Assembly: GCA_963664325.2 (NCBI GenBank) | Contig: CAXXDQ010000007.1 | Span: 704,001-768,000, forward strand | Source: Desulfomonilia bacterium | GTDB lineage: Bacteria; Desulfobacterota; Desulfomonilia; UBA1062 | Direction: 5' to 3' | DNA: 64,000 bases | In this document: in pieces, positions 37,701-39,052 of the stretch | How positions within the stretch are numbered: the stretch's first letter is position 1 | How the letters are laid out: each line of letters begins with the position of its first letter | The notes under the pieces: generated by a model | What the model was told of the DNA's origin: nothing | Databases searched by the model: none | What the model saw: only the letters and a program-made list of their open reading frames with translations | Translations under genes and position numbers: made by a program

Positions 37701-39052
37701 ATTTTCTTTGGCAGCCCGCACTGATGAAGCCTCAGATCGGGTCCGGCTGTGATAACAGAACGGCCGGAATAATCTACCCTTTTCCCGAGAAGGTTCTGGC
37801 GGAACCTGCCCTGTTTTCCTTTGAGCATATCGGAGAGGCTCTTTAGAGGTCTGCGGTTTGCTCCGGTTATTACTCGTCCCCTGCGGCCGTTATCAAACAG
37901 TACATCAACCGCTTCCTGAAGCATCCTTTTTTCATTTCTCAGGATAATATCCGGTGCATTAAGCTCCATCAGTCTTTTGAGCCTGTTGTTGCGGTTTATG
38001 ACTCTTCGATAAAGATCATTCAGGTCGGATGTTGCAAACCTTCCGCCATCAAGGGGAACAAGCGGTCTGAGGTCGGGAGGAAGAACAGGAATGACCTTCA
38101 GGATCATCCATGAAGGGTCCTGCCATTGTCTTAAGTAGTCGATATCGTCATGAGAAAGCCGTTTAGATTCAAGCAGCTTATCTATTATTTCATTTATTTT
38201 AGGGATTATTTTTTTCTTGTCCTGGTATGTCAGTGCCTCTTCCCACATCTTTATTATCTTACGGCATTCAGTAAGTATTTCACCCAGAGCCCTTCTGAAC
38301 TGTTCGTCCTTCTCAAGCTGAAAACGGTCTTCGACAAATTTTATAAGGTCAACAGGTTCGATACCAACCATGACATTGACCATTCTCAACCGTTGCGTAA
38401 GCTTCTTTTTCTTGGCTTCGCTCTTGGTAGTGGCAATTTTATCTTTCAGGTCCGCGGCAAGGGATATGATATCCAGGTCCGAAATCAATTCATCGACTGC
38501 CTCTGCACCCATTCTTGCAACGAAACTCCCAAGTCCATGTTTCTCAACTTCAGCCCTGAACTTGTCCTCGGTAAGGAGTTCCCCTTTTCTCAGCGGTGCA
38601 TCTTTGGGGTCAGTAACAATATAACTTTCAAAATAGAGCACCCTCTCAAGTTCTTTGAGAGAAAGCTCCAGGAGACCTCCAATCCTGCTGGGAAGGCTTT
38701 TCAAAAACCATATATGAGCAACCGGAGTTGCAAGTTCAATATGGCCAAGCCTTTCACGTCTAACCCTTGAGTCTATGACTTCCACACCGCATTTCTCGCA
38801 GACTACACCCCGGTGTTTCATACGCTTGTACTTTCCGCAGGTGCATTCATAGCTTTTGATGGGTCCAAAAATCTTGGCGCAGAAAAGCCCGTCTCTTTCA
38901 GGTTTAAATGTCCTGTAGTTTATGGTCTCCGGCTTTTTCACTTCGCCATATGACCATGCCCTGATCTTCTCAGGTGAGGCCAAGCCGATCCTGACCGCCA
39001 TATAATTGGAAGGATCTTTTGGTTTTTCAAAATAACTGTACAGGTCTTCCAA
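34712..39052 (-). CDS. rpoC: RNA polymerase beta-prime subunit, with a ~78-aa insertion
   Basis: [16 protein letters not shown] active site, [19 protein letters not shown] start. Confidence 0.99.

Follow-up and report, generated by a model that had tools for sequence, protein, structure and literature searches.

In the window, the 64,000-nucleotide stretch of DNA from a Desulfomonilia bacterium that was analysed here, we found that rpoC encodes an RNA polymerase beta-prime subunit with an 82-residue insertion in its clamp region (aa 230-311, GIEPVDL...DYLRQWQ; 38120..38365, minus strand). This is very probably an old, clade-specific domain insertion in the subunit: it lies in frame between universally conserved blocks, and it is both restricted to one clade and conserved within it. 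A more tentative proposal, built on comparison with better-studied polymerases, is that the inserted domain serves as a contact surface on the clamp that would tune transcription initiation. For the whole statement, an old clade-specific domain insertion that also acts as a clamp contact module in initiation, we estimate a probability of roughly 0.5.

Position of the insertion in the beta-prime subunit

The rpoC gene occupies 34712..39052 on the minus strand and encodes, from a TTG start, a protein of 1446 aa. The open reading frame and its translation were assigned by Pfam (PF04997/PF00623/PF04983/PF05000/PF04998), by TIGR02386 (1762.7 bits) and by beta-prime chains in the PDB (E = 0); a phmmer search against all PDB chain sequences matched 108 distinct beta-prime sequences at E <= 1e-50. 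The E. coli chain aligns as two stretches that are broken at the insert, and the other chains printed behave likewise. With residues 157-397 as the query, the first stretch stops at V229 (E. coli 228) and the second restarts at residues 308-311 (E. coli 229-232), so that 82 residues occupy the place of four and the net gain is 78 aa. This agrees with the sequence-only reading, which had described an in-frame insertion of about 78 aa here and had set W315 against E. coli W236 with a one-residue earlier offset; in the alignment W315 corresponds to W236 and residue 308 to E. coli 229, and the offset is visible upstream in V229. In addition to the break in the PDB alignments, the insertion is recorded in the MAFFT alignment, the AlphaFold2 models and the dN/dS values, and it contains no frameshift and no stop.

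The insert site lies between a conserved basic helix and a PxW-MIL strand leading to the lid. The helix contains aa 216-221 (KKLTQR; 38390..38407, minus strand), just N-terminal to the insert and equivalent by alignment offset to E. coli beta-prime 215-220. Universal conservation restarts at aa 312-330 (38063..38119, minus strand), and P313, W315, M316 and P325-P333 are invariant across 43 sequences. The segment that follows comprises what we take to be the lid and the clamp helices, and the alignment bears out the earlier placement of the insert immediately before the strand that runs toward them. The insertion point is probably the tip of a short surface loop, which reads xSGNxPE in relatives. 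On one side of this loop is the basic helix that ends the clamp helical hairpin, and on the other is the strand with which the next block of universal conservation opens.

The neighbouring rpoB gene (39068..43207, minus strand) encodes an RpoB of 1379 aa. It ends at 39068 and the TTG start of rpoC is at 39052, which leaves an intergenic gap of just 15 nt (39053-39067). When RpoB was checked for a clade-specific insert that might pair with the one in beta-prime, none was seen. Its residues 7-1373 align with E. coli beta 4-1339 in a single end-to-end stretch, and RpoB is therefore of the proteobacterial-type architecture, with no large clade-specific insert.

Distribution and origin of the insertion

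The insertion was followed through the window's own family (f1), a second family (f2) that together with f1 makes up the whole class of the window, and a family (f27) of a small neighbouring class. In a protein collection clustered at 90%, 34 proteins are 66-96% identical to the window's protein over residues 215-325. Residues 151-391 are matched in one piece by 40 of 41 related genomes, with 23 of 24 in f1 and 16 of 16 in f2, where identity is 50-55%. The labels of the matching proteins include Desulfomonile tiedjei, Desulfomonilaceae, Desulfomonilia, Syntrophaceae and Thermodesulfobacteriota, in agreement with the Desulfobacterota that the sequence-only reading had named. Two loci, L054 and L055, have inserts 95-96% identical to the window's and are titled “uncultured Bacteriovoracaceae bacterium”, while other relatives are labelled Desulfomonilia or Thermodesulfobacteriota; the Bacteriovoracaceae title looks like a taxonomic mislabel.

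Across the phylum, 301 genomes spread evenly over 95 families were sampled, and 297 of them gave a match. Only 12 of the 297 match across the insert in one piece (the window genome, three of f1, six of f2 and two of f27), while the remaining 285 match in separate pieces, so the one-piece matches are confined to f1, f2 and f27 among the 95 sampled families. A MAFFT alignment of 53 related loci shows the block in 35 and a short xSGNxPEW loop in 18. The block is 82 aa long in f1 and f27 and 84-85 aa in f2. The same stretch was examined in 34 further families, and all 34 have the short loop. Outside f1, f2 and f27, no insertion of any kind was found at the site in 52 loci from 45 families, all 52 having the short loop, and the lineage specificity suspected from the sequence alone is thus borne out by the alignment of RpoC across the phylum.

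Within the class, a homologous insert is present in 109 of 122 genomes. Five of the 13 negative genomes were re-searched with a longer query, and in none of the five could even the invariant flanks be matched, which indicates that their assemblies lack that part of rpoC. An rpoC without the insert was not seen in the class (122 genomes, with five of the 13 misses re-searched). In the class of f27, the insert is present in both genomes (2/2). One f1 genome with a completeness of 86% shows a match to insert residues 35-102 alone (G391:C171:4540-4743) with a TGA inside it; the TGA could reflect a sequencing error, or the copy in that assembly could be broken.

The two families of the class also differ at a second place in the subunit. 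The beta-prime of f2 (Desulfomonilaceae-type, e.g., P0085) is 1620-1690 aa long and carries an additional block of about 185 residues, placed between the positions that match aa 1009 and 1013 of the window's protein. Residues 1009-1013 correspond to about 36014-36028 (minus strand) of the window. The additional block is absent from f1, so that a second large insertion separates the two families of the class. The position of this block is presumably that of the trigger loop, where SI3 lies.

The breadth of this distribution bears on whether the insert could have arisen by misassembly or be an intein or a mobile-element remnant, which we regard as very improbable. Its GC content (0.386) is below that of the gene (0.456), as such an origin might predict, but it is within the spread of the gene's own 246-nt windows, the lowest of which is at 0.366. 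The sequence-only reading had held that an artefact would be absent from relatives, yet the insert occurs in more than 100 independent genome assemblies as well as in independent metagenome contigs. Portions of the insert, and its upstream junction, recur in contigs from peat and sediment with 5-9 differences per 151 nt; a public contig of 8963 nt spans 37900-38600 with 0 differences and is possibly from the same source DNA. An artefact or selfish element is also hard to reconcile with an insert that is in frame and under purifying selection (dN/dS 0.10) and for which neither a free-standing homologue nor an internal duplication was found.

An intein in particular was rejected. The insert starts with Gly-Ile and ends with Trp-Gln followed by Asp, as expected from the earlier observation that intein ends are missing. 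It thus has no Cys, Ser or Thr as its first residue and no C-terminal His-Asn; no Hint or intein match was obtained at E <= 1, and the predicted fold is all-helical.

The inserts of f1, f2 and f27 align over their whole length, with G1, W41, K51, L64, W81 and Q82 of the insert invariant. A beta-prime tree built without the insert columns joined f2 and f27 as sisters (support 97-99) and set f1 apart with good support; this free tree needs two changes of insert label. A one-clade test was carried out on 28 rows under LG+G4 (eight of f1, five of f2, two of f27 and 13 without the insert, with near-duplicates left out). Constraining all insert-bearers to one clade raised the log-likelihood by 14.4 over that of the free tree (p-AU 0.763); a single origin is therefore not rejected, and the constrained tree is the better of those found. 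These results fit one acquisition event, in an ancestor shared by the Desulfomonile-related class and the small neighbouring lineage. The insert would then be a clean single-event marker that joins two families and a small, separately classified lineage, and it would bear on the classification of that part of the phylum.

The source of the insert was sought in wider collections, and no free-standing homologue or donor was found. A profile of the insert gave eight matches among 1.84 billion representatives, of which six are fragments or frameshifted pieces of the clade's own beta-prime. The other two are unrelated and weak, namely a repetitive 1480-aa protein (E 5.7e-5) and a 785-aa protein (E 8.8e-4). 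Among the longer proteins of a 5.8-billion collection that match the insert, 80 of 80 are beta-prime. For other phyla, these searches mean only that insert homologues were not found with these queries, because clustering at 50% hides full-length beta-prime.

No usable match to the insert came from Pfam, NCBIfam, PDB sequences or the ESM Atlas, and no solved beta-prime or other RNA polymerase chain was among the PDB matches of its profile. A HisK-N-like domain (E 0.005, 17.5 bits against a cut-off of 27.8) was dismissed as a chance match. Internal duplication was likewise rejected, since hhalign gave a probability below 1% for the insert against three other parts of the N-terminal 500 aa.

Predicted fold, conservation and possible function

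An AlphaFold2 model of residues 1-500, built from 43 sequences, is poor overall (mean pLDDT 63, pTM 0.45); it is confident at residues 120-310 (pLDDT 77-94), where aa 230-310 are at 85-94. Helices are predicted at aa 233-246, 250-272, 276-280, 283-295 and 301-306 in this model. Modelled alone from 25 sequences, the insert reached a pLDDT of 91.2 and a pTM of 0.77, and both models support the helical character that had been suspected from the sequence. From these models the insert is predicted to fold independently into a compact bundle, acidic overall, with three main helices and two short ones.

The fold itself is uninformative on function, since only generic helical bundles were matched. Foldseek, which the sequence-only reading had named as a check, gave no PDB match at E <= 0.001 with the model of the insert; with the model of residues 1-500 it returned only known beta-prime chains. 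A wide VIA fold search matched nothing but designed proteins and generic helical bundles, and its best Z, 8.3, is lower than the noise level that the tool states for such bundles. A sandwich-barrel hybrid (HABAS) or BEAN domain was considered and rejected, as the models show helices only; Pfam barrel-sandwich matches in this beta-prime are at aa 1066-1271, outside the insert.

The insert is kept under purifying selection. Comparison of 16 full-length f1 sequences gave a dN/dS of 0.10 for the insert and, for the 82 codons on either side, 0.15 (the variable stretch upstream) and 0.025 (downstream); these values are rough, with synonymous sites near saturation and only unsaturated pairs used. Amino-acid identity is 0.73 in the insert and 0.71 in the preceding variable stretch. 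About 40% of the insert residues are charged, and the net charge is -2 to -8 in 22 of 25 insert sequences and 0 in the other three.

Conservation within the insert is uneven and differs between the families. The most conserved block in f1 is aa 246-264 (insert residues 17-35; 38261..38317, minus strand), the start of the long second helix, where mean column identity is 0.96, as compared to 0.66-0.85 for the rest of the insert (15 sequences). It includes 10 invariant charged or polar residues, and this invariant charged face looks like an interface. In f2, however, residues 17-35 are ordinary (0.68) while the third helix is better conserved, and a single partner surface shared by the families is therefore not evident. 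W41, K51, N58, R63, L64, S67 and W81 are conserved in f1, f2 and f27, and these common residues may be purely structural.

We propose, as a possibility on the less likely side of even, that the bundle would give the outer side of the clamp one more surface for protein contacts, and that this surface would tune how the clamp behaves during initiation. The property affected could be the stability and lifetime of the promoter complex or the hold of sigma on the clamp, and this would most likely come about through contact between a basic partner and the charged, conserved face of helix two. One possible partner is found in the organism's own RpoD (575 aa), namely its non-conserved region, which is basic and helical. 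This primary sigma factor is encoded on contig C3 of the genome (L058 1492-3219, minus strand). Its region 1.1 is acidic, and regions 1.2 and 2 are separated by a long Lys/Arg-rich helical region with 56-91% identity in f1 and 40-44% in f2. Within the polymerase, the insert site is presumably on the outer face of the clamp, close to region 2 of sigma.

Studies of E. coli provide the background for this proposal. Deletion of rpoC residues 215-220 altered promoter-complex kinetics and lowered initiation at rrn P1 (PMC2936116, PMC9825170, as excerpted), and the insert begins nine residues after the equivalent of that segment by alignment offset. In escape complexes, the acidic clamp-toe contacts the non-conserved region of sigma70 through an array of basic residues in the latter (excerpts of PMC8113463 and PMC9378689). 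We favour a contact module because the insert is near the equivalent of the delta215-220 segment, because it is acidic like the clamp-toe and the genome's RpoD has a basic region, and because f1 has a conserved charged face. Against this, a dN/dS of 0.10 would be equally expected for a folded passenger domain in an essential protein, and the delta215-220 result concerns a neighbouring helix in a distant organism rather than the insert.

The insert could indeed be such a passenger, a tolerated decoration without a role in transcription, whose loss or unfolding would harm an essential enzyme; we hold this tentatively and judge it about as likely as the contact surface. In both dN/dS and identity it changes about as fast as the variable stretch next to it, few conserved surface residues are common to the three families, and its fold is a generic bundle with a best Z below the noise level. 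In contrast, the length is nearly constant (82-85 aa) in every rpoC seen, across two families and the sister lineage, and a 19-residue block in f1 that is conserved like the polymerase core is hard to explain by folding alone.

Should the insert instead be the docking site of a clade-specific factor acting in trans (a regulator, an elongation or termination factor, or nucleic acid, but not sigma), the polymerase would be regulated in a way that other bacteria lack. The conserved charged face in f1, the acidic and highly charged surface and an independent predicted fold typical of interaction modules are all in keeping with docking. We nevertheless consider it unlikely, as the acidic net charge argues against direct nucleic-acid binding and the conserved face differs between families.

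An extension of the contact-surface proposal, which we likewise think improbable, would make the bundle a built-in regulatory handle on the clamp, either as a sigma tether in cis or as the docking site of a clade-unique regulator. As a tether, it would grip the basic non-conserved region of sigma and be a one-chain counterpart of trans factors of the Crl or RbpA type. If this were true, the handle would set the lifetime of the open complex in slow-growing, anaerobic, dehalogenating and syntrophic bacteria, unlike in any polymerase studied.

Comparison with known RNA polymerase insertions

Lineage-specific inserts are the main way in which bacterial RNA polymerases differ. Effects on initiation, pausing or factor binding are known for those that have been studied (SI3, actinobacterial i1 and Thermus i2). 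To these the present insert probably adds a new site, right after the helix in which a small deletion makes the E. coli polymerase stringent-like, and a new helical fold, as predicted by the models. It is open to bench tests, since the class includes the cultured dehalogenator Desulfomonile tiedjei, a carrier by its source label. It counts as an expected kind of variation, and such inserts are to be expected in poorly studied lineages.

The claim of newness was compared with one 2024 catalogue, and there it stood. In the part of PMC11515920 that was compared, seven insertion locations are given for beta-prime, none of them in the universal domain segment 182-348 that contains the site, and Table S4 of unusual architectures has no member of the phylum. 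The survey covers about 250 genomes and omits small unclassified inserts of fewer than 50 residues, and the portion of its supplementary spreadsheet compared has no entry naming Desulfomonil, Syntroph, Desulfobacterota or Deltaproteobacteria. Full-text literature searching (Desulfomonile RNA polymerase, RpoC signatures) gave no description of the insert. We found no description of an insertion at this site, and with moderate confidence we take it as a new site among RNA polymerase inserts.

Other catalogues may list the site. Lane & Darst 2010 might already have it among their numbered inserts, or Iyer, Koonin & Aravind 2004 among their domain accretions, in which case the insertion would be real but not new. 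The spacer between conserved blocks that holds the site is a known hot spot for inserts (PMC5511352, in excerpt), which would fit an earlier record. Given that the compared part of PMC11515920 lists nothing in segment 182-348, that the literature gave nothing relevant and that no solved beta-prime chain matches the insert profile, we consider a prior listing to be quite unlikely.

The sequence-only reading had placed the well-studied inserts at other sites, and this proved correct. Actinobacterial i1 and Deinococcus-Thermus i2 share one common insertion point at about position 140 (PMC5511352, in excerpt), about 90 residues upstream of the present site by alignment offsets, and SI3 is in the trigger loop. 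The insert is similar to i1 (Mycobacterium, about residues 140-230) in being lineage-specific, all-helical, about 80-90 residues long and in the clamp part of beta-prime, and in occupying a non-conserved spacer ahead of the block that starts at the PEWMIL strand; i1 is thought to affect promoter-complex stability (excerpts of PMC5511352). Unlike the insert, which is predicted to be a compact bundle, i1 consists of two long antiparallel helices. There is also no sequence similarity between the two, and the sites differ: in the alignments residue 308 of the window's protein, E. coli 229 and mycobacterial 306 correspond to one another, and the present site is at E. coli 229-232. The insert is thus not a member of i1.

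Thermus i2, a non-conserved domain with a described role in sigma binding, is likewise a lineage-specific clamp insertion between the same two conserved blocks (PMC5511352, in excerpt). It differs in being made of five sandwich-barrel hybrid motifs, a beta structure of about 280 residues, as compared to the 82-residue predicted helical bundle found here. The E. coli clamp-toe (residues 144-179) resembles the insert in being acidic and in lying in the same part of the chain, with the insert about 50 residues further along; the toe is an acidic outer-clamp protrusion that meets basic residues of sigma's non-conserved region (PMC8113463 and PMC9378689, in excerpt). However, the toe is a bacteria-wide domain that is also found in the window's protein, while the insert is an extra element. 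SI3 differs not only in its trigger-loop position but also in fold class, the insert here being all-helical by prediction. With the insertional domains catalogued for RNA polymerases in the compared part of PMC11515920, the insert has in common that it is in frame, clade-restricted, independently folding as modelled, and placed in what is probably a surface loop of a large subunit.
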